Origin: a virus
Reading direction: 5' to 3' (one strand)
Length of the DNA stretch: 64,000 bases
Virus record (IMG/VR): IMGVR_UViG_3300027815_000003
Coordinates: 64,001-128,000 of that record
Shown here in pieces: positions 5,588-30,676 of the stretch. How positions within the stretch are numbered: position 1 is the first letter of the stretch; each line of letters starts with the position of its first letter. The translations under genes and the position numbers were made by a program. The notes below the pieces were generated by a model. The model was not told the DNA's origin, made no database searches, and saw only the letters and a list, made by a program, of their open reading frames with translations.

Positions 5588-5806
5588 TTATCTAATCATC
5601 CCACTTGGCCCACTATCTGGAGTCCAAATTTGAACTTCTTTCTTTTCTTCTATTTTTTGTTCTTTTGGTTTCTCTTTTATATCAAGAATTTGCGGTAACA
5701 TCCAAACTAGGAAATGTGTAAAATCTGTATGCCTAAAACACATAGAAATTTTACTTTGTTGATAAATTGTATTATTACAATCTGGGACAATACATTTATT
5801 TTTCAT
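5588..5806 (-). CDS. Small Zn-binding protein (C-x4-C...C-x2-H)
   Basis: MKNKCIVPDC...SMCFRH; start overlaps nuclease stop. Confidence 0.6.
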   Translation of the reverse strand: MKNKCIVPDCNNTIYQQSKISMCFRHTDFTHFLVWMLPQILDIKEKPKEQKIEEKKEVQIWTPDSGPSGMIR

Positions 5807-7091
5807 TTATTAATTCTTTTTTTATCCTTTCATATCCATTTTTCAATATTATCATAAGTGTTTCTTTGGGATATAACAATTCAAATTCATCTATTTTATT
5901 TTTACTTCCTTTATCCATATATCCTTTTATCTCTAAATATATCCCTAATTCTGGTAAATAAAAATCTGGAAAATAACGATGTCCATTATTCAATAAAAAT
6001 CCTTTTGGTTCATACAACCATTTAATATTAAACTTATTAAAATAGTCTATCGTTGTTGTTTCCCAAGAACTCCTTGTTAAAATTATTTTATTTTGTTCTT
6101 TTGAAAATCTATAATCTTTTTTGTAAAAATTTCCCAAAGGATTATTTGGGGGTGGATTATTTTTATAAAATTCTTTCATTCTTTTAGACATAATTTCTTT
6201 TAAATAACAACCACAACTAATCGTAATACCATCTAATAAATTTTTTGTTCTTACAAAACTTATTTTTCCACAATCACATTGACATTTCCATCTCACAATA
6301 TTCTTATTCATATCTATATCTATTACTATTAATCTACCAAATTTTTCTCCTATTAAATATCTTTTTCTATCAATAATTGGTATTTTTATATTTTCGTTTT
6401 TACAAAAATAATTTATACAACCAAAAGAAAAAGATAAAATTTTAGATAATTCCATTAAAGAATATTTACCGCTTTTTATTAGTTCTATATTTTCTTTTGT
6501 TAATTGACTTACTTTATTATATTTTACTTTTTGTCTTTCTCTAGTTTTTCCGTGACCTGGGACATAATAACGCAAACATCTTTGTCCACATCCACACTTA
6601 CAATATTTTTTTATTCTTTTTTGTTCTCTATATATATTGGAACTATTATTTTTACAATCTTTGCATAGATAATTTAAACCATCAACAGACATCTTCAATA
6701 TTCCAAACTCATTTTTATTTTTTATAATTTTACATTTATAACAAATTTTAAATCCTTCTGTAATAATTATTTTTTCTGGAACAAAACCATACTTTCTTAT
6801 AAAACAATAATCACTATAACATTTTTTACATATTCTCTGTAAGCCATCTATAAATTTTTTATTTTTTGAAAATTCTGGCTTATTTTTTTTAATATGACAT
6901 TTAGAACAAATTTTAAAATCACTTTCAACTATTATTTCTTGTTCTTTTAATTTTATATATCCATATTTCTTCAAAGAATAATAATCATAATTACATTCTC
7001 TACAACTTCCATATAATCCATCCTTACTTCTTTTTAATTTACCAAATTCACTTTCTTCTTTTTCTACTTTACATTTACTACAAACTTTCAT
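5796..7091 (-). CDS. Cassette 1 endonuclease: CxxC repeats + CGCG motif + LIGEKFGRL domain + PD-(D/E)XK nuclease
   Basis: MKVCSKCK repeats; RSSWE...YEP...YFPDFYLPELGIYLEIKG. Confidence 0.8.
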   Translation of the reverse strand: MKVCSKCKVEKEESEFGKLKRSKDGLYGSCRECNYDYYSLKKYGYIKLKEQEIIVESDFKICSKCHIKKNKPEFSKNKKFIDGLQRICKKCYSDYCFIRKYGFVPEKIIITEGFKICYKCKIIKNKNEFGILKMSVDGLNYLCKDCKNNSSNIYREQKRIKKYCKCGCGQRCLRYYVPGHGKTRERQKVKYNKVSQLTKENIELIKSGKYSLMELSKILSFSFGCINYFCKNENIKIPIIDRKRYLIGEKFGRLIVIDIDMNKNIVRWKCQCDCGKISFVRTKNLLDGITISCGCYLKEIMSKRMKEFYKNNPPPNNPLGNFYKKDYRFSKEQNKIILTRSSWETTTIDYFNKFNIKWLYEPKGFLLNNGHRYFPDFYLPELGIYLEIKGYMDKGSKNKIDEFELLYPKETLMIILKNGYERIKKELINEK

Positions 7092-7094
7092 TTT

Positions 7095-7156
7095 TATTCT
7101 CCTTATACAATCTTATGTATACTTATATTATACCACATAATTATAAAAGAAGAAAT
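7095..7156 (-). promoter_or_regulatory. Extended -10 promoter and RBS of cassette 1 nuclease
   Basis: TGTGGTATAAT (-10 at 7127-7132); AAGGAG RBS; upstream TTCTTCTT can pair with AAGGAGAA. Confidence 0.65.
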
Positions 7157-7160
7157 GTTT

Positions 7161-7310
7161 TTATTTATATTTTTGTATTAAATCCAAAATTGCTTCATCA
7201 AAAAGTTTTGACATTGTTATTCTGGTCTGTTTTGAAAGTTCTTGTAAATTATTAATAATTCCAATATCAATTGAAGTGCAAATTCGTTTTCTGTTTTTTA
7301 AATCCGACAT
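7161..7310 (-). CDS. Ribbon-helix-helix protein, cassette 1 (49 aa, not in track)
   Basis: MSDLKNRKRICTSIDIGIINNLQELSKQTRITMSKLFDEAILDLIQKYK; paralog of 20327, 27566, 30027. Confidence 0.85.
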   Translation of the reverse strand: MSDLKNRKRICTSIDIGIINNLQELSKQTRITMSKLFDEAILDLIQKYK

Positions 7311-7387
7311 ATTAAATATACCTTATTCCCAGAGACTGCTTTACTTGTGCAATATGGGTTTATACATTTTAGTTTATTATTTGCCAT
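7298..7387 (-). pseudogene. Truncated small Zn-protein gene running into RHH1
   Basis: GGAG RBS; MANNKLKCINPYCTSKAVSGNKVYLICRI*; resembles N-terminus of 5588..5806. Confidence 0.55.
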
Positions 7388-7390
7388 TAC

Positions 7391-7585
7391 TTATTTCTCC
7401 TTTTCCATTGATATATCTAAAACCTTAAAATCTTTAGGAATTATAATCTTTATATCTTCCCATTTTATTTCTTGTGATTGTAATTTTAATATATTATTTA
7501 TTAAATTATCTCTTATATGCGGTAATCTAAAAAACGCTTCTAAATCATAATCATCTAAGATTATATTAGTATCTTTTATTCTCAT
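7391..7585 (-). CDS. Hypothetical protein
   Basis: ORF track; coupled TAATG start. Confidence 0.55.
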   Translation of the reverse strand: MRIKDTNIILDDYDLEAFFRLPHIRDNLINNILKLQSQEIKWEDIKIIIPKDFKVLDISMEKEK

Positions 7586-7785
7586 TAAATAATTATTTTC
7601 CTTTTGATTTCCCCATCTTCTGTAACTGGTATTTCTGGTTCTTTTATTTTATCCTCTTCTTGTTTTTTATCTTCCATAAGTTCAATTAACTTCTCTGTAT
7701 AAGAAGCACTACTATTAGTATTATTTGTAGTAATAGTTACATAATATATTATTTGTCCTTTTTCATTTACAAAATAATTATTCAT
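7585..7785 (-). CDS. Hypothetical protein ending GEIKRKIII (same as TerL C-terminus)
   Basis: ORF track; ATGA overlap with upstream gene. Confidence 0.6.
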   Translation of the reverse strand: MNNYFVNEKGQIIYYVTITTNNTNSSASYTEKLIELMEDKKQEEDKIKEPEIPVTEDGEIKRKIII

Positions 7786-8240
7786 TTTATAACTCCAGAT
7801 AAAGCAATTAATGCACTATCATAAAAATCCTGATCTAAAGATTCTGATAAACCAAAAATTTCTATTGCTTTTTTCTTTATATCGTCCTTTTTACAATTAC
7901 CCTTTAGCCCAGGAATTAATCTCTTCCATGTTGTGTTCCCCACTTCTTCTACCAATATCCCTCTATTTTTTAATGTAAGTTTTATCCCAGAAATTATCTG
8001 TATCAAACTTCTTGATGTAAGAAAATTTTGAATATAAATAGGTGCTTCTATTAAAACTTTTGCGTTATCAAAAAATCCATTATTTACATCAACTTCCAAT
8101 TTTTCTATTAAGTCATAAAACTTTTCATTTATATCTTTTTTGTTTGTCTCCCATTTTTTTTGTAAAAGTAATTTCCCATTTTCATCCAAAACTGTACAAT
8201 GTATCCTATTACTAGCCGAATCAATCCCGATTACGTTCAT
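7782..8240 (-). CDS. RuvC-like Holliday junction resolvase
   Basis: VIGIDS, VLIEAP, QDFYDSALIA acidic triad of the RNase H fold. Confidence 0.8.
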   Translation of the reverse strand: MNVIGIDSASNRIHCTVLDENGKLLLQKKWETNKKDINEKFYDLIEKLEVDVNNGFFDNAKVLIEAPIYIQNFLTSRSLIQIISGIKLTLKNRGILVEEVGNTTWKRLIPGLKGNCKKDDIKKKAIEIFGLSESLDQDFYDSALIALSGVIK

Positions 8241-8246
8241 CTTACT

Positions 8247-8525
8247 TCAATAAAATAACCAATTTACCAAGACATCCATTAAGATTGTATCCAAATAAAT
8301 ATATAAATTATCCCTATTTTCAAAAATTTCTTTTTGCGCTATTTTTAATTCTGTTTTTATATTTGAGTTTTCTTTTAGTTCAAATATTATTATTATCTGA
8401 CTCGTGTTTATATCATTTATAATATAAAAATTTAACAAAAACCCTATGTTACGACTTTTTAACCAATTTTGTATAATATAGAATAGAGAATCTTTATCCA
8501 TAGTTTCTGTATTAATATTTATCAT
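8247..8525 (-). CDS. Hypothetical protein
   Basis: ORF track. Confidence 0.55.
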   Translation of the reverse strand: MININTETMDKDSLFYIIQNWLKSRNIGFLLNFYIINDINTSQIIIIFELKENSNIKTELKIAQKEIFENRDNLYIYLDTILMDVLVNWLFY

Positions 8526-8816
8526 TTAATCTTTATTAGCAACTGCTAATAAAATTTCTCCATGTCAGGCTAATGGAACACAAAAACAAATTAAATCTTT
8601 TCCCTTTAATTCTTCTTTTACTGCTTTCAACAATTCTGGATTTCCCATAATATATTCTCTATATCTATCTATAGCTTCTTGTCTGGTTTTAACTTTATAT
8701 TTAGCTAGTGTCCCAGATAAATGAGAATACAAATTACCAAATTTTGTTGGACGCCCCACATAAATAGCCTCTTTAGGGATATCTTTATTAATATTTTTAT
8801 TATAAAGTTTGGGCAT
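8526..8816 (-). CDS. DUF4326-like protein, 96 aa, with in-frame UGA at codon 84 (candidate selenocysteine)
   Basis: IYVGRPTKFGN...LKGKDLICFCVPLA-TGA(8565-8567)-HGEILLAVANKD-TAA(8526-8528); extended frame stops directly before next ATG (8525). Confidence 0.8.
8532..8553 (-). promoter_or_regulatory. Bacterial SECIS-like hairpin
   Basis: TTTATTAGC-AGTT-GCTAATAAA: perfect 9-bp stem beginning 11 nt after UGA; loop G at position 2 followed by U. Confidence 0.7.
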
Positions 8817-8818
8817 TT

Positions 8819-9325
8819 CTATAATCCTAACCATTCCATCATTTGTTCTCTATTTATTAAACTCTTACATTTATAATTTCCACGATTTAATAAACAAATT
8901 TTCCCGCTCACAACAAAACCATTATTTTCTAATATTTTCTGTGCGCTATCCATTGCATTACCAGTTGTGACAACATCATCAATCAGATAAACATTTCTGT
9001 TTTCTAATGAAATATTATAACCAAATGGTAGATATAAATTAAAATCAGGAATATCTGGATAGATTTGTATATGTTTTGTTCCCTTTTTAATAAATCTAGA
9101 CGCACCACTCATTATCACACCTGGAATATAAACATTATTACTCATACCATAAATAAAAATATCTTCGCATATTTCTTTATCTAGCTTATCTATATCAAAT
9201 TTTAATAATGCCTCTTTGCCCGAATGTAATCTAAAATTATCTACAGTAATCATCTGCTTTAATATTTCTCTTAAGTCTATATTTGCACCACCATTATACA
9301 TATTAATAAATCTATTCTCATCCAT
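8819..9325 (-). CDS. Type I phosphoribosyltransferase (orotate PRTase-like)
   Basis: PRPP-binding VYLIDDVVTTGNAM; N-terminal F-x-LHSG. Confidence 0.8.
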   Translation of the reverse strand: MDENRFINMYNGGANIDLREILKQMITVDNFRLHSGKEALLKFDIDKLDKEICEDIFIYGMSNNVYIPGVIMSGASRFIKKGTKHIQIYPDIPDFNLYLPFGYNISLENRNVYLIDDVVTTGNAMDSAQKILENNGFVVSGKICLLNRGNYKCKSLINREQMMEWLGL

Positions 9326-9328
9326 AAA

Positions 9329-10471
9329 TTAAAATCCCATCTTTCCTTTCACTTCATTTAAACTATTTGGATCTTCTCCGTTTTTTATTTGATATATTTC
9401 AGCTAGAGTGTACTCTCTTTTAGATAATTTTATATCACCTACCAATTTTTGTGAATGCTCAAAAGATAAATTTCCAACCTCTATATTAGCCAAACATCTA
9501 CCAGGACGAATTATAGCTGGGTCTATTTTTTTAATATCTGTATTAAATGTAATAAGAATAATACTATCTGCAACTAAAGATAATAATCCTTCACTAACAT
9601 TAAGAAGATTTGCTCTTGCATCAATATGATTTGATGACGAATCCATTGTTAGTAAATCACCAATATCTTCAAAAACAAGTAAAGATTTTTTAAAATTAGA
9701 CATTACATTATCTAACTTACCCGCATCATTAAGAAATACCATAGGAGGGGAGCAAACAACTGCACGTCTTTTTTTCATTTCAGTTAATATAGAACGTACT
9801 AACCAAGTTTTCCCAGAACCTTGTATCCCATGTAAAACAACTATCCCATTTTGAGTATCTTCTAATTGTTTAAATAATTTTTCTATTTTATTTATTACAT
9901 TCGTTTCATAGTTCTGTTTTATAGAAGCAAATGGGACTTTATCAAATTCGTGAGTATTATAAACAATACCATCTGGTTTTAAATAAGCAAATGTGATTGG
10001 GACAAAACCACCTTGATATGAAAAAGAATTTATTATTTTAAATCCATATTCTGTTAGTTTCTGTTTTATATCTTTAAATAAATTTTTATCTTTTGTACAA
10101 AGCTCAAAATCAAATTCACTGCTATCTTCTAATTCTTTTTGTTCTTGTACAACATAAGGCTCATTTTCATCATAATAATCTGATTTTGTTTTATTTTTTC
10201 TAGAAAAATAAAAAATATTATACAAAGAAGATAAACAATATTGTTCATTATTAGAAATAAAAGATGTCTTACATATATAATCTTTTTTTATTTTATCAAA
10301 TATATCTTGAATATCACCAGATTCTAATTTTACATGAAGTCTTTGCCATAAAACCTCACCATAATTTTGTCTTACCATATCTTCTTTTATTAAATTGTAT
10401 TGTAAACTAAAAACATCATAACTAAGATGAGTTCTATGACTAAATATATCTATTTCTTTTCTCATTACCAT
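9329..10471 (-). CDS. AAA+ ATPase (start revised to coupled TAATG at 10471)
   Basis: HGIQGSGKT, LVFEDIG, TFN, DPAIIRPGR. Confidence 0.85.
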   Translation of the reverse strand: MVMRKEIDIFSHRTHLSYDVFSLQYNLIKEDMVRQNYGEVLWQRLHVKLESGDIQDIFDKIKKDYICKTSFISNNEQYCLSSLYNIFYFSRKNKTKSDYYDENEPYVVQEQKELEDSSEFDFELCTKDKNLFKDIKQKLTEYGFKIINSFSYQGGFVPITFAYLKPDGIVYNTHEFDKVPFASIKQNYETNVINKIEKLFKQLEDTQNGIVVLHGIQGSGKTWLVRSILTEMKKRRAVVCSPPMVFLNDAGKLDNVMSNFKKSLLVFEDIGDLLTMDSSSNHIDARANLLNVSEGLLSLVADSIILITFNTDIKKIDPAIIRPGRCLANIEVGNLSFEHSQKLVGDIKLSKREYTLAEIYQIKNGEDPNSLNEVKGKMGF

Positions 10472-11115
10472 TAATACACCTGCTTCTCTAAAGCTCTTAG
10501 AGAAATAATACGAGAAACTGTTTCCCACAATATCTTATAAGATATAGCTAGACCATTAATTCTAGTATATAATCCTTCACATTCTATTAAATCTTGTCTT
10601 ATTTTTTTAAGTTGAGGATTTTTATCTATTGCCTCTCCCCTTAAAAGTTCTTTTGTTTTCCTTTTTTCGCTTTCTTCTAATGACAATAAATAAGTTGCTT
10701 TATTTAACATTTCTTCAAATGTAGCTTCTAAAACACCTTTTTTACTACCGACAAAAGATAACTGACTCTCTATGTATCCCCTAAAAGCACCATACTGTAT
10801 CAATAGTTTTTCTAATTCATCATTCGAACATTCAGCAAAATTATTAATATCTAAGAGTTCTTCATTATCTTTAGGTTTAGTTATTTCTGGAACTTTTAAT
10901 TGATTTACAAATTTTTCTATTCCATTTAAAACAGTATCTATGTTCCATTTTTTAAGAGAAGATATTTGTGGGTAAGATAAAACTATATTACCTTCTTCAT
11001 CTTTCTCTCCTCTTCTCATCATCAAAGCCATATCTTCACTATCTGAAATAGTATAAACTAATTTCTCATTAGTCTCTTCATTCTTTACTATTACTTGATT
11101 TTCAGCTAATTTCAT
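10471..11115 (-). CDS. Coiled-coil protein, possible UvsY-like recombination mediator
   Basis: Long amphipathic helices ending SRIISLR; in the recA/exonuclease cluster. Confidence 0.4.
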   Translation of the reverse strand: MKLAENQVIVKNEETNEKLVYTISDSEDMALMMRRGEKDEEGNIVLSYPQISSLKKWNIDTVLNGIEKFVNQLKVPEITKPKDNEELLDINNFAECSNDELEKLLIQYGAFRGYIESQLSFVGSKKGVLEATFEEMLNKATYLLSLEESEKRKTKELLRGEAIDKNPQLKKIRQDLIECEGLYTRINGLAISYKILWETVSRIISLRALEKQVY

Positions 11116-11813
11116 AAAACGTCGTCAAAACTTTCATTATTTTGGTAATTTATACATCTGCAAAACCTAGCATCATGTATTACGGATTTTATATCTGGAA
11201 TTTCTTTTAGCCCCATCACATAATTGCATTTTTCTACTATTTTGTTCCATTTTTCTTTATTTTTTCTTTGAGAGAAAGCCTTTATTTCCTGTGTATTTTT
11301 ATCCTCATATAATACACTTCCCTTTTCTATATCCAGGACATTAAGATAAACCTGTAATTGTATTTCATGCTCTGGTTTAGCCATTTTATCTAATTTTCTA
11401 AATTCCGCATCATTTATGGTCTTAAGTTCTATAATATATCTTTTGTCATTTATATTAAGAATAAAATCTGCTCTACCGTGTAAAGGAGGATTTTCTATAT
11501 TTGCATCTACCTCTTTATCTTCATAATAACCCATTTTTTTGAAATAGGCTTCATATCTATCTTGGGTTATATTACCATGATCAAATATTCTTTTAGTCCT
11601 ACCATTTATTTTTTCTGGTAATAAAAGTCCATGATAATGAAGATACAATAATCTATGACAAGAATAGCCAATAGAACTTACTTGAAAATAACCCCCTCTA
11701 GGGATATTACCATTTTCCGATAACGCATCTTCTATTTGTTTCTCTAACCATATTTCTCTTGACTCATCTATTTGACTGTATCCATTTTTTTGGCGTAATG
11801 CCTTAATTCCCAA
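11112..11813 (-). CDS. Cas4/RecB-like PD-(D/E)XK exonuclease
   Basis: SSIGYSCHR, GRADFI, IELKT, QLQVY. Confidence 0.8.
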   Translation of the reverse strand: MGIKALRQKNGYSQIDESREIWLEKQIEDALSENGNIPRGGYFQVSSIGYSCHRLLYLHYHGLLLPEKINGRTKRIFDHGNITQDRYEAYFKKMGYYEDKEVDANIENPPLHGRADFILNINDKRYIIELKTINDAEFRKLDKMAKPEHEIQLQVYLNVLDIEKGSVLYEDKNTQEIKAFSQRKNKEKWNKIVEKCNYVMGLKEIPDIKSVIHDARFCRCINYQNNESFDDVL

Positions 11814-12144
11814 AATAAATTTCCAACTCTTTCTTTATATCTTCTTTTTCATAAGAGACTATATGTATTATTTTTTCTACACCTAAAGATAATAATTCTT
11901 CGTCTCTTTTTTCATTAGCTTTTTTAGAATGATTTGCTGTTTTACCATCACACTCTATAACTGCATTATCATCTGATAAGAAAATATCAACAGATAAAGG
12001 ATTTTTAGGTTTCCCAATTTTATTTAGTTCTTTTCTATAAAATCTTTTTTGTTGTTGATATCTTATTCCCATTTCACTAAGAACTTCAGCAACCAATTTC
12101 TCTTGTTTTGTAAAATCTTTATTCGGACGGTTCAATTGATTCAA
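11803..12144 (-). CDS. Vsr/DUF559-like endonuclease
   Basis: QEKLVAEVL...VDIF...VIECDG...H...RDEELL. Confidence 0.7.
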   Translation of the reverse strand: MNQLNRPNKDFTKQEKLVAEVLSEMGIRYQQQKRFYRKELNKIGKPKNPLSVDIFLSDDNAVIECDGKTANHSKKANEKRDEELLSLGVEKIIHIVSYEKEDIKKELEIYFGN

Positions 12145-13087
12145 CTTCTTTTTTAAGTAATTCTAAAGCATTTGGATTTGAAATAAAATATTCTTTCAGT
12201 CCAGTTCTTCCCTGTTTTTTTGTCCCATCTTTTAATAAATACCAAGTTCCACCTTTTGTAATCAATCCTTTATCTATAAAATCATCAATTAAAAGTTCAA
12301 TTAAATCAATTCCACCCTTAAGTCTAAAAGCAATAGCTACATCATCGTAAGATGCACCCCTTACTTTACTTTTTCTTTGACGGATATTTATATTAAACCC
12401 TACTCTAGTTTTCTCTCCACCAATTGTTTCTTCTATCCAACCATCTCTGCGTACCTGCAATATAATATGAGCAAAAAACGTCTGTGCAAGGCCACCAGGG
12501 GTAACATCTTGTGCATAAGGGCCAATTCCCTCTCTTAATTGATTAATAAACAGTAATGTCGTTCCTTCGCCTAAACTTGATATTAAACGAGATATACCGT
12601 CATTTACCATTCTTGCCCTATTTGCCATAGGGGAATGAGCTAGTGCCTCTTCATTTAGTGCTGTTGGCACTAATGCAGCGACACTGTCTAAAACAACCAA
12701 ATCAATTTTATTTCTCATTAGTTCACGGATTATATCAAATGCAACCTCTCCGCTTTCTGGTTGAGAAACTAAAACATCATCTATATTAACTCCATTTTCT
12801 TTTGCCCATTCTGCATCCCAACTCCATTCAGCATCAATCCAAGCAGCAGTACCACCTTTTTCTTGAATAGATTTTACCGCCTTAAATGCCAGAAGAGACT
12901 TACCAGTATTACTATCACCGATTAATAATGTAAGTCTTTTTGTGGGTAAACCACCACCAATAAGTTTATCTAATGGTTCTATATTAAAAGGTATTCTTTC
13001 ATATTTAAAATAATCATCATTACCTTTTCTTAAAGCACCACTTTTAAACAATTCATCTAAATTAACTTCTTTTTTCTTAGGTGGCAT
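12119..13087 (-). CDS. recA: RecA-like recombinase
   Basis: LIGGGLP, GDSNTGKS, WIDAE, VSQPESGE, VLDSVAAL, FINQLR, TPGG. Confidence 0.93.
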   Translation of the reverse strand: MPPKKKEVNLDELFKSGALRKGNDDYFKYERIPFNIEPLDKLIGGGLPTKRLTLLIGDSNTGKSLLAFKAVKSIQEKGGTAAWIDAEWSWDAEWAKENGVNIDDVLVSQPESGEVAFDIIRELMRNKIDLVVLDSVAALVPTALNEEALAHSPMANRARMVNDGISRLISSLGEGTTLLFINQLREGIGPYAQDVTPGGLAQTFFAHIILQVRRDGWIEETIGGEKTRVGFNINIRQRKSKVRGASYDDVAIAFRLKGGIDLIELLIDDFIDKGLITKGGTWYLLKDGTKKQGRTGLKEYFISNPNALELLKKEVESIEPSE

Positions 13088-13317: not shown

Positions 13318-13350
13318 ATTTCAATTTCCTTTCTCTATTTAGTAACTCAA

Positions 13351-13379
13351 ATTATATCACATAATCTTATAATTGTCAA
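13351..13379 (-). promoter_or_regulatory. Consensus sigma70/sigmaA promoter for recA cluster
   Basis: TTGACA-17 nt-TATAAT with TGTG extension. Confidence 0.85.
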
Positions 13380-13380
13380 A

Positions 13381-17361: not shown

Positions 17362-17364
17362 ATT

Positions 17365-18366: not shown

Positions 18367-18388
18367 TTTTTATTTTACTCCTTCTTTC

Positions 18389-20234: not shown

Positions 20235-20237
20235 TTT

Positions 20238-20281
20238 TGATATAACTCCTTGTAATTTTTTATTACAATTACATTATATCA
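20238..20281 (-). promoter_or_regulatory. Extended -10 promoter/RBS within inverted repeat (cassette 2)
   Basis: TGATATAAT; outer TGATATAA/TTATATCA, inner TTGTAAT/ATTACAA, RBS AAGGAG between arms. Confidence 0.7.
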
Positions 20282-20326
20282 TATTATATGTTAGTATATG
20301 ATACTTTTTAGATAATATATAAAAGT

Positions 20327-20482
20327 TCAATGAGATTTATGTTTTACAATCAAATCTTCTATAGCTTCGTCTAAAAATTTTGAAACTGGAATTCTGGTCA
20401 TTTTTGAAAGTTCACGAAGATCAGTAACAATCTTAGTATTAATTGTACTACAAAGCCTAGTTCTGTTTTTTAGTTTATTCAT
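20327..20482 (-). CDS. Ribbon-helix-helix protein, cassette 2 (51 aa, not in track)
   Basis: MNKLKNRTRLCSTINTKIVTDLRELSKMTRIPVSKFLDEAIEDLIVKHKSH; ATG directly after helicase TAA. Confidence 0.85.
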   Translation of the reverse strand: MNKLKNRTRLCSTINTKIVTDLRELSKMTRIPVSKFLDEAIEDLIVKHKSH

Positions 20483-23016: not shown

Positions 23017-23710
23017 TAATAATTATTTCATCTTTAGGATTTATTTCAACCGCTCTAGTTAACCCATAATTTACTTTACTTTCTTGTTTCTTAAAAATCA
23101 AAAAATAACTATGATATTTTCTTGCATGTTGTTGGATGTTGCTGTTTGACCCTATGATACGAGTTTTCGCCAATAGAATAAATAAATCTTTTGGATAAAA
23201 ACCTATCTCATTTGCCATATTTACTATTTCAATATGTGATAAACATTGTTTACCACCATCAACTGTATCTTGACATTTAAAAACTAATATCCCATTTGGC
23301 TTTAATATTCTATAAAATTCACCTAAAGAATCATAATAAAAATCCCATAAATCATGTTGTATATTTTTAAAATAACCAAATCTTTTTTTTATTATTCCTG
23401 TTGGTTCTTTATTATCTGCTGGAATACCAGCTAAAAATGGTGGATCAAACATAATGGTAGAAATAGAATTATTTTCTAATAACAACTTTCTACAATCTGC
23501 TTGTATAGTATCTTCTGTTTGTGGCTTTAAATCAAATTTATATTTTGGCTGTTGTATATTTTTGTAAAAATAACCCTTACTGTATGTTGGGTCTAATTCA
23601 AAACCATTTGGACAATACAGTTTAATAATCCAATTTAATATTTCATCTTGATCATAAGATATAGATTTTATTATATTAGCATTAGTCAACCTATCCATCA
23701 AATTCCCCAT
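22994..23710 (-). CDS. Putative N6-adenine DNA methyltransferase
   Basis: LDPTYSKG motif I, FDPPF motif IV, RILKPNGILVFK. Confidence 0.8.
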   Translation of the reverse strand: MGNLMDRLTNANIIKSISYDQDEILNWIIKLYCPNGFELDPTYSKGYFYKNIQQPKYKFDLKPQTEDTIQADCRKLLLENNSISTIMFDPPFLAGIPADNKEPTGIIKKRFGYFKNIQHDLWDFYYDSLGEFYRILKPNGILVFKCQDTVDGGKQCLSHIEIVNMANEIGFYPKDLFILLAKTRIIGSNSNIQQHARKYHSYFLIFKKQESKVNYGLTRAVEINPKDEIIIIEKNDKN

Positions 23711-25283
23711 AAATCAATCTCTCAAAATCTTTCTTAGATAATTTAGCTAGACTCATACAAATATCCCCATTGATAAATTCCTTAACAAATTTATCTCTAT
23801 TGGTATAAATTTGCATTATTCCTTCATCTATACTATTTTTATAATAGGGTTCTACAATATAGGTATCTCTATTACGCCACATTCTTCTTAATCTTCCGTT
23901 TCTTTGATTCATAGTGGCTGGATTATAGAAATACCCAAAATGAATAATATAATCTGCACTTGTAAAATTTACACCAAATCTACCAGCATCAGTACAGACT
24001 ATTGGTTTGTTATCATTATCAAACTTCTTAATAGTCTCAAATCTTTCTTTACTATCCACATCACTTGTAATTTTATATGGTGTATCTAAATATTTACAAA
24101 GTAAATCTGCACTATCTTTAAAGTAAGTAAAAATAACGACCCTTCCTTTATCTTTTATAAATTCTCTTAACCATTGTAATTTTTGGCTTTCAAAGTTAAA
24201 CCCAAGTATTTCTGGAAATTCCACAAATTGTCTAAGCCTTATTGTCTTTTCTAACGCTGTTTTTAAACTAAATTTACTATTAGATTTTAACCAATCCATA
24301 AACTCTCTTACAATTGCATTATACGCTTGTTGATGTTGTTTGTCAAACACTATTTCCACTGGGATATGTTTTTGTGGTAATAAATTAGGTGCGACTTCAT
24401 CTTCTGTTCTTCTAAGTAAAAATGGAGAAGTTAATTGATGTAATTCATCTAGATTTTTATATCCAACTATACCTCCCCAAAAATCTAATTCACAATATCT
24501 ATATTTAAATTGATAAGCAGATGGAAGTAAATCCTTTCTCACCCACTCCATCATTGATTGGAACTCCATCAAATTGTTTTCAATATAATATCCAGAAAGA
24601 CCAAATTTATAATCAGCTTCTAGTTTTTTTGCCTTCTTAGTTCTTTCGGCTTTACCAGTTTTTAAAAATGTCGCTTCATCGGCAATAATAATATCCCAAT
24701 CTTTAGGGTAGATATCTTTATCGTTTCTTAAAATATCATAAGTGGCAATAGTAAATTGAGATTTAGTTTTCCACAATATTTCTCTTTTCTTTCTTATCCC
24801 ATCTATTACCAAAGGTTCTATATTATAATGTTTTTTAAATTCATTTTCCCAATTATATCTAAGGGAACTAGGACAAAGTATCAGGCATTTTTCTGGTGTT
24901 TTTTCTTTAGCAGCAGTAATTGCCTGGAGACTTTTTCCAACACCCAATCCATCCGCTAATAATGCCTTTTTAGCTGTTTTTAAATAATCAGCACCCACTC
25001 TTTGATGAGGTAAAAGAAAATTATTTGATTCACCCTTTTTAAACTTATAGTCAACTAAAGACAATAAAGCTCTATTTATTTTATCTCTTTGGAATTTTGC
25101 TTCTTCTGTCCATTCAGAATTTTTTAGATTCTCTAAAGTTTTTACAGTTAATTGTGGTACTTTCCAAACCTTTTCTTTTTTATCAAATTCCCTTACTGGA
25201 AGATTTCTTACTATTTCTAAATCTTGTTCGTTATAGGAAAAAGAAAGTAAAAATTTACCATCTTTATGTGATATTGTTATCAT
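23691..25283 (-). CDS. SNF2-family helicase with N-terminal HARP-like domain
   Basis: LLADGLGVGKS, IADEA, LSG, QRNGRLRR. Confidence 0.88.
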   Translation of the reverse strand: MITISHKDGKFLLSFSYNEQDLEIVRNLPVREFDKKEKVWKVPQLTVKTLENLKNSEWTEEAKFQRDKINRALLSLVDYKFKKGESNNFLLPHQRVGADYLKTAKKALLADGLGVGKSLQAITAAKEKTPEKCLILCPSSLRYNWENEFKKHYNIEPLVIDGIRKKREILWKTKSQFTIATYDILRNDKDIYPKDWDIIIADEATFLKTGKAERTKKAKKLEADYKFGLSGYYIENNLMEFQSMMEWVRKDLLPSAYQFKYRYCELDFWGGIVGYKNLDELHQLTSPFLLRRTEDEVAPNLLPQKHIPVEIVFDKQHQQAYNAIVREFMDWLKSNSKFSLKTALEKTIRLRQFVEFPEILGFNFESQKLQWLREFIKDKGRVVIFTYFKDSADLLCKYLDTPYKITSDVDSKERFETIKKFDNDNKPIVCTDAGRFGVNFTSADYIIHFGYFYNPATMNQRNGRLRRMWRNRDTYIVEPYYKNSIDEGIMQIYTNRDKFVKEFINGDICMSLAKLSKKDFERLIYGEFDG

Positions 25284-25356
25284 TTAATTTATACAATCCA
25301 AATCTATTCTATTTTTATCTGATAATGTTAACATTTTTCTCTTTTCTAAAACAAAA

Positions 25357-25378
25357 TCTCTAACAATTTTGTTAGAGA
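25357..25378. repeat. 22-bp palindrome, operator-like
   Basis: TCTCTAACAA-TT-TTGTTAGAGA. Confidence 0.8.
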
Positions 25379-25403
25379 AAATATGTCTTTTATTTATTAT
25401 TAT

Positions 25404-25988
25404 TTATTCTTTATAAGAAAGTTCTGGTGTTACAAACCAACCATTTCTGTTAGAGTTTCTAATTATAGAAACCTTATCTTTTAAGTCGTTATTAAAAGAT
25501 ATATAAATTGGAGATAAATTATATTTCTCTTGATCTTTTTGAACTCTATTTAGTTCATATTTAGAACTAATATTAAATAAAAAATGCGCTCTTTTGTATT
25601 CTGAAAGAACTTTATATTCCTTTAAAGTTTCATCAAACTTACGTCTTTTATCGGTGTTAAGTATAACACAAAAGTTAACGTGTGTCAAGTCAGATAAGCC
25701 TTTAGGTGAAATAGTTCCGTCTGTCTCTATTTCTACTATATATGGTAAATAACGAACTAAAGAAATAAGCTCATTTTTAAATGACATACAAGAACCAGTG
25801 ATTAAAAGATAATCACAAAGATAAATATCTCTATTTAATAATGATATAATTTTTTCTATATTTCTATCTATTCCATCTTCTCCGATATCTAACTTTATAA
25901 TTGGTCTACCATATTGTATTCCTTTTGTTTTTATTGATTCTTGGATATTATTAACTTTCAATGTATTATATTTATAACCTCTCAACAT
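25404..25988 (-). CDS. QueE/NrdG-like radical-SAM fold protein lacking CxxxCxxC
   Basis: KVNNIQESIKTKG...GRP, LITG, VEIETDGT match QueE blocks; the cluster loop is absent. Confidence 0.6.
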   Translation of the reverse strand: MLRGYKYNTLKVNNIQESIKTKGIQYGRPIIKLDIGEDGIDRNIEKIISLLNRDIYLCDYLLITGSCMSFKNELISLVRYLPYIVEIETDGTISPKGLSDLTHVNFCVILNTDKRRKFDETLKEYKVLSEYKRAHFLFNISSKYELNRVQKDQEKYNLSPIYISFNNDLKDKVSIIRNSNRNGWFVTPELSYKE

Positions 25989-25994
25989 ATACTC

Positions 25995-26445
25995 TTCTTA
26001 TTTGTTCCTGTTTTCTTTATTATTTATATGTTATAGACTTATTTAAGGTATAAATGCCCCTTGCAAAATTTTGCAATTTATATTTAAGTATACAGGGTTA
26101 TTTAATACCCAACACCTATACGGCTGTATTTTTTATATTAGCTATGCAATATAAAGAAACCATCACCACACCCCCACAATCCCGATAAAAGGGTGTATAG
26201 AGAACATCTATTATTTAGTGTCAATGCCGCAGTGGAAATACTGCACGGAGATCGCTTCAACCTCTTTTTAAATTAGAAAAGGCGATAGTCATTAACTACG
26301 ACTGTGCAAGATTTAGTGCTAAACCAAGAAAAGCATAACACACCATTATTGTAGGCTATTTAGCCAACTAAGGAAATGGACGACCTTATTTTTTATGTTA
26401 ATTATTGTTCTGTGTTATTTATAAACAAATAATCTTTTTAATCTT
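25995..26445 (-). ncRNA. Candidate large structured RNA, unassigned
   Basis: About 450 nt with no credible ORF, G/C-richer than flanks, at least 10 stems (see findings). Confidence 0.5.
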
Positions 26446-26450
26446 ATAAT

Positions 26451-27509
26451 TTAGCTAATTTTTATATGTTTATTTCTAATAATTGATGTACCAGGGATAT
26501 CAATTCCTTCTCTATTTTTTTCTAATATTTCTTTTTTATCTATTGTCTCATCTGTTCTAAATTCTAACAAATCTTCTGGTACTTTATTGCTTGGTATTTT
26601 TAGAATTGTTGTTTTAAAATTGCTAGGTATTTTCTGTTCATCTGAAATTTGTGATAAATAAATAGTTGCTTTGTTTAATAAAATAATAGAGTCGTTAAAA
26701 AGACCAATTCCCGTATTACATTTCCGACATAATAAACCTCGTATTTTACCAGTTAAATGATCATGATCTACACAAATTTTTGTTTTTTGAAAACTTATAT
26801 TACATATTTTACATGAATTATTTTGTAAAATTAATATATCGTTGTATTTTTTAATATCTAGATTATACAAATATTTCAATGAACGTTCTTTATTTTGTTT
26901 TTTATATTCTTGTGTTGTTGTTGATTCTTTAATTTGTTGTTTATGTGACTCTCTATATTTTTTACTATAATTTTTAATACGTTCTTTATTATTTTTTCTA
27001 TATTTTGTTTTTATATCTCTATCACATATTTTACAATATCTAGATAGATTATCTTTACTTGTAGACGAAGTATAAAATTCATTTTTGCTTTTTTTAATAA
27101 GACATTTTATACAAATTTTATATTCTGTTATTTCTTTTATTGTGTTTTTTAATTTTTCTCTATCTTTTGTCTGACATTCTTTACAATGACTTTGTAAACC
27201 ACTTTTTATTCCATTTCTTTTATTAAATTTATCTATTGATTTTTCGGTTTTACAACTTGGGCATAATTTAACTTTATCTCCAAATTTATTAATTTTAATA
27301 CATATTTTTGCATTGTGCCCTTTGACAAATTTTTTATTTGTTGTTAACTTTCCACACCCACATTCGCAAAAATGATACAAACCTCTTTTATTTTCAGAAA
27401 TTAGACGAAAACAACTTTTACACCATCCTTGTAATCCATTTTTACTACCTTTATCTTTACAAAACTCGTTTTCGTCTTTTTCGATTTTACATTTGGTACA
27501 TATTTTCAT
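26451..27509 (-). CDS. Cassette 3 endonuclease: CxxC repeats + endonuclease VII-type HNH, fused to a Gp157-like C-terminus
   Basis: CKIC...VDHDHLTGKIRGLLCRKCNTGIG; tail ISDEQKIP...IDKKEILEKNREGIDIPGTSII. Confidence 0.8.
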   Translation of the reverse strand: MKICTKCKIEKDENEFCKDKGSKNGLQGWCKSCFRLISENKRGLYHFCECGCGKLTTNKKFVKGHNAKICIKINKFGDKVKLCPSCKTEKSIDKFNKRNGIKSGLQSHCKECQTKDREKLKNTIKEITEYKICIKCLIKKSKNEFYTSSTSKDNLSRYCKICDRDIKTKYRKNNKERIKNYSKKYRESHKQQIKESTTTQEYKKQNKERSLKYLYNLDIKKYNDILILQNNSCKICNISFQKTKICVDHDHLTGKIRGLLCRKCNTGIGLFNDSIILLNKATIYLSQISDEQKIPSNFKTTILKIPSNKVPEDLLEFRTDETIDKKEILEKNREGIDIPGTSIIRNKHIKIS

Positions 27510-27517
27510 GTTTTATT

Positions 27518-27560
27518 TTCTCCTTACATATATTATACCACACTTTTTATATAAGGAGAA
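27518..27560 (-). promoter_or_regulatory. Extended -10 promoter inside RBS-sequestering hairpin (cassette 3)
   Basis: TTCTCCTTATATA...GTGTGGTATAAT...TATGTAAGGAGAA; 13-bp stem with one G-U. Confidence 0.75.
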
Positions 27561-27565
27561 CTATT

Positions 27566-27718
27566 TTATTGATATTTTTGTACTAAATCAAAAACCGCCT
27601 CATCTAAAAGTTTTGACATAGGTGTTTTTAATTGTTTTGATAATTGTTTAAGAAAATAAATAGTTCGTTTATCTAAAGAACTACTAATTCTAATTCTGTT
27701 TTTAAGATCATTTGGCAT
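27566..27718 (-). CDS. Ribbon-helix-helix protein, cassette 3 (50 aa; track start 27769 probably too long)
   Basis: MPNDLKNRIRISSSLDKRTIYFLKQLSKQLKTPMSKLLDEAVFDLVQKYQ. Confidence 0.85.
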   Translation of the reverse strand: MPNDLKNRIRISSSLDKRTIYFLKQLSKQLKTPMSKLLDEAVFDLVQKYQ

Positions 27719-27827
27719 TTTCAAACTCGTCTTGTAAATTTTGTAAAGATTCTTCAAATCCTTCTCCATTACTAGATAATTCTGAAATCACTCTATAGGC
27801 TTCCGAAAGTTCAAACAGTCTTGTCAT
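27708..27827 (-). pseudogene. N-terminal fragment of siphovirus Gp157-like gene
   Basis: MTRLFELSEAYRVISELSSNGEGFEESLQNLQDEFENAK*; coupled TAATG start. Confidence 0.7.
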
Positions 27828-28078
27828 TATTTTCCTTTCTTTTCTCTTTTTCTATCTATAAAAATAGCTAAAGCAAAAGCAGCATTAGCTAAATCTAAAG
27901 ATTCTAGATATATTTTATCTAAATCTTGTTTTTTTATTACTATTTCTTGTTTTAGTTCATCAAACTCTTCTAAAATTACACCTAATGCTTCGTGTGTAGA
28001 ATTATATATGGTTGGATATGTATTTTTTGTTTTTGCATATCTTTCCATAAAATCTTGAATAGCTTTATTTTCAGACAT
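27827..28078 (-). CDS. MazG-like NTP pyrophosphohydrolase
   Basis: STHEALGVILEEFDEL...ESLDLA. Confidence 0.7.
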   Translation of the reverse strand: MSENKAIQDFMERYAKTKNTYPTIYNSTHEALGVILEEFDELKQEIVIKKQDLDKIYLESLDLANAAFALAIFIDRKREKKGK

Positions 28079-28081
28079 TTA

Positions 28082-28882
28082 TTATTCTAACTTTCTACCG
28101 TGATGTTCGTCTTTAAAAGATTTTCTTAACTGCCTCCAGCCAAAAAAATTCCCATATCTTTTATCACTTGCAGAAGAAGCAACATGTTCTAATGGTGAAA
28201 AATGTTTTGAACTTACTAATTTATCAAATAGATTTATGTCGGATATTATATCATGTCTTTCATTCATAGTCAAATATGAAGCTCTGGCACATCTAGCTGC
28301 AGAAATTTTTCTTCTATCCCAAATAGTTCCATCTTCTTCTGTTGTAAGAGGTAAATGCCAACTATCATATTTTATATATTTTGGTTCGTTTTTATCATAA
28401 ATTTCTTTCATCATATCTGCTATTTTTTTTATTTCTGGTTGTGCATCTTTAGCACATCTAAGATAAAAGAAATTATCCCATTCTGTCGCAGAGACGATAA
28501 CGGTGACAAACATCCAAGGTTCCAGTAGTCGATTAATAATTTGTTTATGGACACCTAATTTTGATAATTCTTCTGTATATTTTATCACTGAATCTCTTGC
28601 TTGTATCCAAATTTTATTAGCACTATCTATATCTTCTATTTCTTTTTCTGCAGACATTCCAGGTTGATTTTTACCCCAAAAAACTGGATAAACAGGATCA
28701 TTTTTTATTGCATCTAAAAGTTTTTTATTAGGAATAGCCCGACTGCTTGAAACAGAAAAAGACATTATTCTGTGTCTAAGGTGTTCTGAATGAACAAATC
28801 TCGGATATTGGACTAAAAATGTTGTAAGTCTATTATCAAATTGATTTACACTATCTAATAATATCTCTGCTTTGTAAGGCAT
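28082..28882 (-). CDS. thyX: Flavin-dependent thymidylate synthase
   Basis: RHRIMSFSVSSSR signature; HFSPLEH. Confidence 0.92.
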   Translation of the reverse strand: MPYKAEILLDSVNQFDNRLTTFLVQYPRFVHSEHLRHRIMSFSVSSSRAIPNKKLLDAIKNDPVYPVFWGKNQPGMSAEKEIEDIDSANKIWIQARDSVIKYTEELSKLGVHKQIINRLLEPWMFVTVIVSATEWDNFFYLRCAKDAQPEIKKIADMMKEIYDKNEPKYIKYDSWHLPLTTEEDGTIWDRRKISAARCARASYLTMNERHDIISDINLFDKLVSSKHFSPLEHVASSASDKRYGNFFGWRQLRKSFKDEHHGRKLE

Positions 28883-28949
28883 TACTGTTATCTCTTCCTG
28901 TTTCTTCTATGTATTCTTTATGGTCTCTGTAAAAATGGGATAATAAATA
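28851..28949 (-). pseudogene. Orphan C-terminal half of a C2H2 finger
   Basis: YLLSHFYRDHKEYIEE in an alternative frame; aligns with WLLNHYYSQHKQQED of 30157..30306. Confidence 0.5.
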
Positions 28950-29926
28950 AATTTTTTTAATTTCTCTATTATTTTTTGTTCTGATTTTATTTCTTTTTCC
29001 CAAATAATTAATGTTTTATAACCAAATTTTCTAAAATGGTTTGTTCTAATTTGTTCATCTTCTGGTTTATGCCAATATTCCCCAAAAAACTCAATTATTT
29101 TTTTATCTTTTTCGTCTATAAAATCTGGACATTTTCCATCAATTGTTATTTTCCAATTTCCAACAAATTTATATTTACCTGGGAAATTTTCTTCTAATAA
29201 TTTTATTATATATTGTTCACATTTATTCGGAGAATTTTGAGACGAAATAGATTGTTTTCTTATATAATCTTTATTTTTCCAAAGTTCTTTTATGCTTTGT
29301 GATACCTTTTCATTAACTTCTAAAGGTCTTTGTTTACCTCTAAATTGCGATACCCTTTTTTCTATAGTTTCGGAAGATTGTTTTATACCTAAATGTGATT
29401 TTATTAGTTTTAATTTTGTATTTTCGTTCATAGGTATCCCAATATGAGATTTTGCTATGTTATCTGCCCATTCTTCAGGAAGAGACTTACCCCTTCCACT
29501 ATGCCCTTGTTTATAATTTTGTTTACATAACTCCTCACAACCACATTTGCATAAATTTATCTTTATCTTTTTGTTATATTCTTTTTTATATTCTTCTACA
29601 CATTGTTTACAAGAAGAATATAATCCGTCTTTTTTACCTTTATCTTGATTAAACTCATTTTCTATTTTAGATATTTTACATTTTGTACAAACTTTATAAT
29701 AGTTTTCTTTATTTACAGAGATATAACATTTTTTACCATTATGACCTTTAATAAATCTTTTATTTTTAGTTAATTTATTACATCCACATTCACAAAAATG
29801 TTCTTTTAAATGTTTACTTTCATAAATACATTTTTTACATTGATAATTAAATCCATCTTTAGTTATCCTATCTCTATCAAAATCTTTTTCTTCTTTTTCT
29901 ATTTTACATTTGCTACATATTTTCAT
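28907..29926 (-). CDS. Cassette 4 endonuclease: CxxC + CECGC + NUMOD3-like + Vsr-like domain
   Basis: MKICSKCK; PNKCE...CPDFID...IIEFFGEYWH...LIIWE. Confidence 0.8.
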   Translation of the reverse strand: MKICSKCKIEKEEKDFDRDRITKDGFNYQCKKCIYESKHLKEHFCECGCNKLTKNKRFIKGHNGKKCYISVNKENYYKVCTKCKISKIENEFNQDKGKKDGLYSSCKQCVEEYKKEYNKKIKINLCKCGCEELCKQNYKQGHSGRGKSLPEEWADNIAKSHIGIPMNENTKLKLIKSHLGIKQSSETIEKRVSQFRGKQRPLEVNEKVSQSIKELWKNKDYIRKQSISSQNSPNKCEQYIIKLLEENFPGKYKFVGNWKITIDGKCPDFIDEKDKKIIEFFGEYWHKPEDEQIRTNHFRKFGYKTLIIWEKEIKSEQKIIEKLKKFIYYPIFTETIKNT

Positions 29927-29929
29927 TCT

Positions 29930-29991
29930 TGATATAACTCCTTGTACTTTTTGTACAGTTATATTATATCATAAATTATCATAATGTGCTA
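29930..29991 (-). promoter_or_regulatory. Promoter/RBS within inverted repeat (cassette 4)
   Basis: TAGCAC-17-TATAAT (TG ext.); TGATATAA/TTATATCA; inner TGTAC/GTACA. Confidence 0.7.
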
Positions 29992-30003
29992 TTTTTTTAC
30001 CTA

Positions 30004-30042
30004 ATAATTCGTATCTGAAAAACGAATTATAAACGAGTTTTT
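30004..30042. repeat. 39-bp hairpin-containing repeat, copy A
   Basis: 38/39 identical to 60831..60869; ATAATTCGT-9 nt-ACGAATTAT. Confidence 0.95.
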
Positions 30043-30176
30043 ATAAGATTTTCTATTGCTTCATCTAAAAGTTTAGAAATTGGAATTTTTGTTTGCTTTG
30101 AAAGAAGATGAAGCTGTTCAAAAAGTTTATTATCAATTGAACTTCCAATTCTAGTTCTATTTTTTAGTGTATACAT
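30027..30176 (-). CDS. Ribbon-helix-helix protein, cassette 4 (49 aa, not in track)
   Basis: MYTLKNRTRIGSSIDNKLFEQLHLLSKQTKIPISKLLDEAIENLIKTRL. Confidence 0.85.
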   Translation of the reverse strand: MYTLKNRTRIGSSIDNKLFEQLHLLSKQTKIPISKLLDEAIENLIKTRL

Positions 30177-30649: not shown

Positions 30650-30676
30650 GATTTTTCCCTTTCTTTCTATATTTAT

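Follow-up and report, generated by a model that had tools for sequence, protein, structure and literature searches.

Ribbon-helix-helix genes at the front of probable homing-endonuclease cassettes in an uncultured phage

The ~190-kb genome of an uncultured phage contains six units, c1 to c6, in each of which a small ribbon-helix-helix (RHH) gene of the RHH_3 family is followed by a promoter-bearing spacer and a nuclease gene. Four of these units lie in the stretch of DNA analysed here, hereafter the window (64,000 nucleotides, bases 64001-128000 of IMGVR_UViG_3300027815_000003, a 190,284-bp IMG/VR virus record that is ~94% complete), and c5 and c6 lie to its left. The best explanation overall, which we regard as probable, is that the units are free-standing homing-endonuclease cassettes built from three modules: an RHH_3 gene, a hairpin-promoter spacer and a modular nuclease. 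Direct observation covers the anatomy and copy number of the units, their empty sites, a swapped nuclease, the predicted hairpins and the membership of the proteins in known families.

Six pairs of RHH_3 and nuclease genes

A first-pass annotation of the window had proposed four units of RHH gene, spacer and nuclease, and all four were recovered at their positions, on the minus strand. Their genes, together with the two nucleases outside the window, are as follows.

7161-7310, minus strand: c1 RHH_3 gene, 49 aa (PF12651 E 4.5e-11, phrog_3180)
5796-7091, minus strand: c1 nuclease, 431 aa, with three CxxC..DG..CxxC fingers, one CKCGCG..GH finger and a C-terminal PD-(D/E)XK domain
20327-20482, minus strand: c2 RHH_3 gene, 51 aa, its ATG directly after the DnaB-helicase stop codon
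19305-20234, minus strand: c2 nuclease, 309 aa, with Zn fingers, NUMOD3 and a DUF559/Vsr-like domain, between DnaB and primase
27566-27718, minus strand: c3 RHH_3 gene, 50 aa, counted from the ATG at 27718
26451-27509, minus strand: c3 nuclease open reading frame (ORF), 352 aa, with Zn fingers and Endonuclease VII (HNH; E 6.5e-18)
30027-30176, minus strand: c4 RHH_3 gene, 49 aa (PF12651 E 1.1e-16)
28907-29926, minus strand: c4 nuclease, 339 aa, with Zn fingers and a Vsr/DUF559-like domain, upstream of the thymidylate synthase ThyX
genome 16592-17854, outside the window: c5 nuclease, twin-HNH
genome 60215-61359, outside the window: c6 nuclease, Vsr-like, directly after the 3' end of the ribonucleotide reductase (RNR) gene

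By sequence, the assignment of the small genes to the RHH_3 family was confirmed: all four in the window score above the threshold of PF12651 (RHH_3), with E-values of 1e-9 to 1e-16, and their PHROG match is phrog_3180, 'Arc-like repressor'; the RHH genes reach 38-61 bits against a Pfam gathering cut-off of 21.6. Every RHH_3 gene in the genome (6/6) stands directly upstream of a nuclease that opens with MK[VI]C[ST]KCK, and a hidden Markov model built from the six RHHs returned exactly six hits, with no lone RHH in the genome even at E<=10. This strict pairing of RHH and nuclease is far beyond chance. In five cassettes an upstream ORF ends at or just inside the RHH start, its stop codon adjoining or overlapping the ATG (in c1, that of a 26-aa ORF; in c4, the RHH start overlaps the end of a 49-aa Zn-finger ORF, 30157-30306), and in c5 it lies ~12 nt downstream of the stop. 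An AlphaFold2 monomer of the RHH has helices at residues 16-29 and 33-48, in the register of P22 Arc, with the N-terminal strand at low confidence. A sequence search of the PDB returned no homologue for the RHH and nothing useful for the c1 nuclease, and no fused RHH-nuclease proteins were found, which counts as weak evidence.

The cassette nucleases have N-terminal CxxC..F..DG..CxxC and CxCGC..GH fingers in common. Their catalytic domains, as listed in the first-pass annotation, agree with the Pfam and PHROG hits (c1, PD-(D/E)XK; c2, DUF559/Vsr-like with NUMOD3; c3, Endonuclease_7; c4, DUF559/Vsr-like), and the c1 nuclease matches phrog_9019 (E 7e-17) and carries the motif PDF...LEIKG. Using Pfam and PHROG hits together with motifs, we placed the nucleases of all six cassettes in HEG-type families, that is, families of homing endonuclease genes (HEGs), with their catalytic motifs intact. 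The same two databases revealed neither a transposase nor TnpB in any cassette, and the first-pass annotation had likewise seen no transposase. Two candidate identities were rejected: an IS605/IS607 transposon, since no unit carries TnpA or TnpB, and restriction-modification (R-M) systems, since the cassettes contain no methyltransferase.

Empty sites, insertion limits and exchange of modules

Using one of the RHHs as query, we reached metagenome contigs that share the DnaB-RHH-DUF559-primase gene order with the window. One of them (L107, L109; ENA ERZ28564339 scaffold_1125) represents a relative of the phage and is syntenic with the window at 72-92% nucleotide identity (~80% overall). The comparison of occupied and empty sites covers c2, c3 and c4, and the relative's contig stops ~350 bp short of the c1 site. 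Empty alleles, which the first-pass annotation had anticipated in relatives, were found for both c3 and c4 (L107/L108), with base-level limits that include the RHH.

26643-27718, minus strand: c3 insertion, 1,076 bp replacing 227 bp (L107:6616-6842) of a Gp157-like gene
27708-27827, minus strand: Gp157-like N-terminal stump left by the c3 split, 39 aa
28943-30220, minus strand: c4 insertion, 1,278 bp against 2 bp in the relative (empty site L107:5234-5235)

At the c3 position the relative has an intact 175-aa Sipho_Gp157 gene (L107:6507-7034), and homology to the relative ends at 27719, one base ahead of the RHH ATG. On the other side, the cassette proper ends at 26643; the stretch 26451-26642 is a Gp157-like 3' remnant in frame with the EndoVII ORF, the tail of which matches PF05565 positions 115-161 of 162 (E 3.6e-5). 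At the c4 position, the relative reads from GroES through an intact 54-aa C2H2-like ORF to ThyX. The c4 insert is located within the 3' end of this small Zn-finger ORF. A diverged replacement ORF end (..LLNHYYSQHK..) stands on the upstream side of the cassette, and on the downstream side is the original end (..LLSHFYRDHKEYIEETGR..), inside which the c4 nuclease ORF stops.

The target of c4 is itself a small conserved ORF with a C2H2-like pattern (..CIVNGCPKK..H...H..), found between GroES and ThyX at window 30157-30306 (minus strand) and at L107:5148-5312. No gene is called at this position in the relative's record.

Two earlier statements about the ends of the units require revision. That the left edge coincides with the RHH ATG is exact for c3 and incorrect for c4, whose insert begins 44 bp upstream of the ATG. 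That the units have no terminal repeats overlooked the flanks of c4 and c6, where the target gene's 3' end recurs as diverged duplicates, and a possible 5'-end duplicate at c1. In c6 the duplicates are two copies of the RNR 3' end (CKKCGW..CD*), with a local alignment score of 43 against a shuffle maximum of 40; in c1 the possible flanking duplicate is of the start of the downstream 72-aa gene, with a marginal score.

Because the relative without c3 and c4 shows insert limits that include the RHH, we conclude that RHH, spacer and nuclease insert as a single unit. Near-identical population variants of the relative's own cassette were present in contigs from different metagenomes, L108 and L133, and carry two independent frameshifts in the nuclease, namely a +1 A in an A-run (L108:10402-11392) and a 20-bp deletion (L133:732-1460), with the RHH unchanged. 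In the alignment, the frameshifted copies are otherwise near-identical to the relative's DUF559 nuclease. The life cycle of homing endonucleases includes a decay phase, and these indels are the decay phase expected of it.

The proposal that the units are mobile and selfish is thus upheld by the empty c3 and c4 sites in the relative, the varied cassettes at the DnaB-primase site and the nuclease-inactivating indels in the variants. Both of the features by which free-standing HEGs can be tested were observed: a nuclease of HEG-type family, and presence/absence or replacement at the same site. On these grounds, we consider it very likely that the units are mobile HEG cassettes and that the RHH belongs to them. 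What does not stand is their description as an undescribed mobile element family: they are best classed as free-standing HEGs, and Arc homologues next to homing endonucleases have already received passing mention (PMC10690162; bioRxiv 10.64898/2026.09.24.754181).

Paralogy is evident among the RHHs (42-74% identical) and among the N-termini of the nucleases, as it would be if an RHH-nuclease operon had simply been duplicated within the genome to give ordinary paralogues with no mobility. This account is barely credible in the face of presence/absence polymorphism with precise junctions in a close relative, a different nuclease at the same site, and a host gene disrupted with a replacement deletion. 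We rejected it as contradicted by the empty sites.

Exchange between cassettes was examined using identity matrices for the RHH, spacer and nuclease modules. The c2 site is occupied in both the window phage and the relative (DnaB 90% and primase 77% identical in amino acids), with RHHs that are 76% identical and spacers that are 88% identical in nucleotides. DNA homology extends from the RHH across the spacer to nucleotide 12 of the nuclease, stops, and resumes ~20 codons into the primase; the two nucleases align in short patches only and their bodies are essentially unrelated. In a third phage fragment, L191, the gene after DnaB is a c3/c6-type RHH, which stands with a type B spacer (described below) before a relative-type nuclease. 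The DnaB-primase site therefore holds different cassettes in three phages.

A similar mixing is seen between cassettes of the same genome. Apart from c2 and its counterpart in the relative, the closest RHHs are those of c3 and c6 (74% identical; remaining pairs 42-58%), yet the c3 nuclease is of the EndoVII type and that of c6 is Vsr-like. Between c4 and c6, full-length identity is 40% for the nucleases and only 45% for the RHHs. Two types of spacer can be told apart, in partial agreement with the grouping of the RHHs: type A in c2, c4, c5 and the relative, and type B in c1, c3, c6 and L191. The idea that the catalytic domain is exchangeable is borne out most directly at the c2 site, where nuclease bodies differ between the window phage and L107 behind a kept RHH and spacer. 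A more far-reaching possibility, which we regard as doubtful, is that the persistent unit is not the nuclease and is instead the RHH, the hairpin-promoter and the first Zn-finger front end. These would form a portable, self-limiting expression platform, invading phage genes, on which nuclease bodies of unrelated fold are swapped time and again; the six RHHs, with their near-identical reading heads, would make up one cross-regulating network across the genome. If true, the front end would be a cassette system for homing nucleases.

Reassortment of this kind also bears on what the RHH does. Its strict adjacency to the nuclease, and its position within the mobile unit, would suit a protein with no regulatory role that serves in immunity, by sitting on the site of the nuclease in the resident genome, or in targeting, by guiding the nuclease to its site. 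Such a role appears rather improbable: the N-terminal arm and strand of the six RHHs are nearly identical even though the cassettes occupy six unrelated sites, the nucleases already have large Zn-finger DNA-binding arrays, and a specific partnership between protein and target would not tolerate free reassortment of RHH and nuclease.

Spacer promoters, hairpins and a proposed mode of control

Every spacer contains TRTGRTATAAT, an extended -10 element of sigma-A type, followed by AAGGAG and then the ATG. There are ~23 such -10 elements in the genome, six of which drive cassette nucleases. The four spacers in the window are as follows.

7092-7160, minus strand: c1 spacer, type B, 69 bp, extended -10 TGTGGTATAAT at ~7127-7137 inside a hairpin at 7097-7154
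20235-20326, minus strand: c2 spacer, type A, 92 bp, extended -10 at ~20273-20283, bipartite hairpin at 20238-20281
27510-27565, minus strand: c3 spacer, type B, 56 bp, hairpin at 27518-27560 with the extended -10 (27532-27542) in its loop
29927-30026, minus strand: c4 spacer, type A, 100 bp, extended -10 at 29963-29973, bipartite hairpin at 29925-29976

In type B spacers, an anti-Shine-Dalgarno (anti-SD) stretch (CTCCTTATA-like) upstream of the -10 element pairs with the Shine-Dalgarno (SD) sequence and leaves the -10 in the loop, with fold z-scores of -2.6 to -4.9. In c1, the 5' arm of the hairpin pairs with the SD (z = -3.9), and in c3 the hairpin consists of the anti-SD TTCTCCTTATA paired with the SD TAAGGAGAA (z = -4.9). 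Type A spacers form a bipartite hairpin, in which the -10 (GATATAAT) is paired with GTTATATC, located between the SD and the ATG, around an inner TGTAC..GTACA stem, and have fold z-scores of -3.7 to -5.6. In c2 (z = -4.7) the inner stem shows compensatory changes; c4 (z = -3.7) has a second TATGATA copy 10 bp upstream of its -10.

For c1, c3 and c6, the predicted probability that the SD is unpaired is 0.00-0.05 on read-through RNA, compared with 0.93-1.0 on RNA begun 7 nt after the -10 (c1, 0.00 on read-through RNA and 0.97 on spacer-promoter RNA; c3, 0.00 on the long RNA and 0.98 on the short). At six other promoters of the genome, used as controls, the value on read-through RNA is 0.46-0.83. 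A ribosome-binding site (RBS) that is blocked by pairing in read-through RNA yet accessible in transcripts of the proximal promoter is accordingly predicted for c1, c3, c6 and L191.

The RHH gene appears to be served differently. The c3 insert has nothing upstream of the RHH ATG and thus no RHH promoter of its own within the insert; since, in addition, the RHH ATG abuts or overlaps the upstream stop, we conclude that the RHH relies on transcription of the invaded gene. In the case of c4, this transcription would come from a perfect TTGACA-17-TATAAT promoter upstream of GroES.

The likeliest role of the RHH, which we favour somewhat on the basis of analogy, is repression of the spacer promoter. 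In IS605 elements, Arc binds the transposon promoter and represses tnpB, as established by ChIP-seq, reporters, and protein and site mutants (bioRxiv 10.64898/2026.09.24.754181). For the cassettes, we infer RHH binding and repression, translational coupling and cleavage of empty sites, in the following scheme. The RHH would be made from the transcript of the invaded phage gene. On this read-through RNA a hairpin would hide the nuclease RBS, most clearly in the type B cassettes c1, c3 and c6, and the nuclease would be translated only from RNA begun at the spacer promoter. There, an RHH dimer would bind and repress, like IS605 Arc at the tnpB promoter, so that little nuclease would be made, or only in a short early pulse. 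Such a pulse could arise if the spacer promoter is used immediately by host RNA polymerase and is then closed by RHH made from an invaded early gene. In a mixed infection, the nuclease would cut the cassette-free allele, and repair would copy RHH, spacer and nuclease together. Recombination in the conserved RHH-spacer-MKxCxKCK stretch may then swap nuclease bodies among cassettes.

Several observations weigh against repression by the RHH or against its being integral to the nucleases. In type A spacers (c2, c4 and c5) the SD lies in an internal loop, with a predicted accessibility of ~0.6, indistinguishable from the controls. A k-mer search of the spacers found no cassette-specific operator, the only common motifs being those of the promoter and the SD, which also occur at other promoters of the phage; TATGATA heptads, repeated or inverted in c2, the relative and c4, are a candidate operator only. 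The AlphaFold2 monomer has no built beta-strand, which leaves the DNA-reading residues uncertain; the candidates are positions 6, 8 and 10 or positions 7, 9 and 11, and residue 8 varies in part with the spacer type. Three other HEG-like genes of the phage are without an RHH (window 40048-40893, genome 14981-15736 and genome 62536-63726), and none of 39 similar Zn-finger nucleases in IMG/VR has an RHH within 3 kb. It follows from this last result that the nuclease class does not require the RHH and that the RHH-nuclease partnership is lineage-restricted. Finally, the six spacer promoters lack the TTGACA -35 box seen at other promoters of the phage, which makes activation conceivable instead of repression.

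As an activator or coupling device, the RHH would bind the -35-less spacer promoter and switch the nuclease on only when the target region is expressed, a role that would also fit the reliance of RHH expression on upstream transcription. We consider this unlikely, given that extended -10 promoters work without a -35 box or an activator, that the characterised close homologues are repressors and that RHH activators are rare.

The gene at window 40048-40893 (minus strand) encodes a nuclease of 281 aa in which a single CKCGCG..GH finger is combined with a PD-(D/E)XK domain resembling the c1 C-terminus (phrog_9019). It has neither RHH nor spacer and overlaps both neighbouring genes. This gene is an internal control, in that a c1-type catalytic domain also occurs without the RHH front end.

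The arrangement of gene and promoter is also informative about a toxin-antitoxin-like or exclusion module, in which the RHH would neutralise the nuclease and the nuclease would attack rival phages or host DNA. RHH_3 proteins are named antitoxins in some databases and nucleases can be toxic. However, the RHH here comprises no more than the 49-51-aa fold and lacks a C-terminal tail for toxin binding, and the promoter lies between the two genes, with no autoregulated promoter upstream within the insert. Furthermore, the nucleases have typical HEG architectures in typical HEG sites (DnaB-primase, ThyX and RNR), with target-end duplications and empty sites. We judge a module of this kind to be very unlikely, and a type II toxin-antitoxin pair was rejected on account of the bare RHH fold, the promoter between the genes and the HEG-type nucleases.

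RHH_3 relatives, known systems and neighbouring loci

RHH_3, with 839 hits at E<=1e-5, is a tight family found in Firmicutes and in the elements they carry, in which the LKNRxRI...SKLLDEAI motifs are common; homologues that are 55-70% identical carry the LKNRxRI N-terminal motif. Most homologues are lone genes. The recurrent neighbours are enzymes of mobile elements that cut or modify DNA, namely TnpB (divergent), an Eco57I/MmeI-type enzyme, a C5 methyltransferase, and GIY-YIG and NUMOD4-HNH nucleases, and a homologue 70% identical to the c4 RHH adjoins TnpB. Among 49 IMG/VR and 80 metagenome loci, a HEG-type gene lies directly downstream of RHH_3 in only five, comprising two GIY-YIG, one NUMOD4-HNH and two copies of the relative's cassette. 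In cultured phages, RHH_3 was found alone or divergent from TnpB, and never adjoining a HEG.

Same-strand genes directly after RHH_3 include a GIY-YIG gene (15-bp gap; L024:3989-4617), a NUMOD4-HNH gene (4-bp overlap; L189:292-995), a C5 DNA methyltransferase gene (4-bp overlap; L185:1018-2177) and a gene for an Eco57I/MmeI-type enzyme (L012:147-2398). A recurrent pair in metagenomes consists of RHH_3 and, 9-42 bp downstream, a ~615-aa protein with no Pfam domain other than a weak C-terminal helix-turn-helix (HTH) (L125, L128, L139, L140, L142 and L162).

The cassettes closely resemble the free-standing HEGs of T4-like phages (seg, mob and Aeh1 mobE), which likewise lie between or inside conserved DNA-metabolism genes, vary in presence among relatives, have (as predicted for the type B cassettes) an RBS hairpin on read-through RNA with a proximal promoter inside it, and encode a modular DNA-binding and catalytic protein. 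Control of the nuclease RBS by a promoter in a hairpin has been described for T4 I-TevI, I-TevII, I-TevIII and segB and for Aeh1 mobE (PMC2988022). In contrast to these, the cassettes add a separate, dedicated RHH gene at the 5' edge, their promoter is a host sigma-A extended -10 (TGnTATAAT) rather than a T4 late promoter, and four catalytic folds use one N-terminal Zn-finger and regulatory front end.

I-TevI additionally binds an operator over its own promoter and thereby represses itself (PMC2988022). HEG control in two layers, with promoter occlusion by a DNA-binding protein and an RBS hairpin, would thus be common to I-TevI and the cassettes, for which occlusion is a prediction. The T4 nuclease uses its own DNA-binding domain as repressor, whereas the cassettes would delegate this task to an Arc-like protein.

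With the Arc proteins of IS605 and IStron elements, the RHHs share PF12651, the LKNRxRI...SKLLDEAI motifs and a position beside the nuclease gene of a mobile element. Unlike those elements, the cassettes have no TnpA, TnpB or omega-RNA; and whereas the IS605 promoter is divergent and autoregulated, the cassette RHH is co-directional with and upstream of the nuclease, so that the promoter it presumably regulates is downstream of the RHH gene. The controller (C) proteins of R-M systems are a further parallel, in that a small DNA-binding regulator is encoded just upstream of a dangerous nuclease in a mobile unit. C proteins differ, however, in being HTH proteins, in controlling their own synthesis through a promoter that precedes their gene, and in delaying nuclease expression.

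HEGs, Arc repressors, RBS hairpins and the association of Arc with HEGs were already known, and nothing in these findings overturns them. The novelty lies in the fixed place of a dedicated Arc-like gene, which stands at the 5' edge of a mobile unit and is fed by the host gene's transcript, and in the joining of that layout to a sigma-A promoter in a hairpin and to the free exchange of four nuclease folds. Homing endonucleases need tight restraint, and here that restraint seems to be a separate, portable Arc-like gene within the mobile unit. In elements of Firmicutes, a single RHH family stands guard over TnpB, over R-M enzymes and over HEGs of several families, which points to a 'nuclease governor' module of general use. 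Nature supplies six paralogues, spacers of two types, empty sites and swaps, which makes the model directly testable, and the cassettes could provide compact regulated nuclease parts.

The phage has a GC content of ~29%, and in the region examined all long ORFs are on the minus strand. A megablast search of GenBank phages with 20 kb of the window gave no match, and DnaB as a single query retrieved no relatives from IMG/VR. Among 5.8 billion proteins, this DnaB matched only its own 90% cluster and one fragment, which indicates that the phage lineage is sparsely sampled. Rfam and tRNA scans of the window gave no hits.

Between c3 and the next gene, ~460 bp (window 25989-26450) have no convincing ORF and a locally higher GC content. 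This stretch is 82% conserved against the relative, is negative in Rfam and has a fold z-score of only -0.9. Upstream of GroES, the relative carries an insertion of ~1.8 kb with a serine resolvase and TnpB (IS607-like; L107:2917-4642). The window lacks it, and homology jumps from L107:2914 to L107:4701 at window ~30670-30735.

The RNR gene, the 3' end of which precedes c6, is in two pieces within the region formed by L007:5362-7726 and window 1-1639 (genome 61362-65639). Its C-terminal piece opens with an intein C-terminal splicing block (..THNYLLENKIISHN/S), and between the two halves is a 396-aa ORF (phrog_22677, no known function) with its own TTTACT..TATGATATAAT promoter. The locus resembles a 'fractured gene' of the split-intein kind, with a free-standing gene between its parts. 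A 1,082-aa ORF on L007 (genome 56460-59708, minus strand) has an apparent intein-like insertion (..ACYDEQTEVLTKDGWKYF.. after a conserved block).

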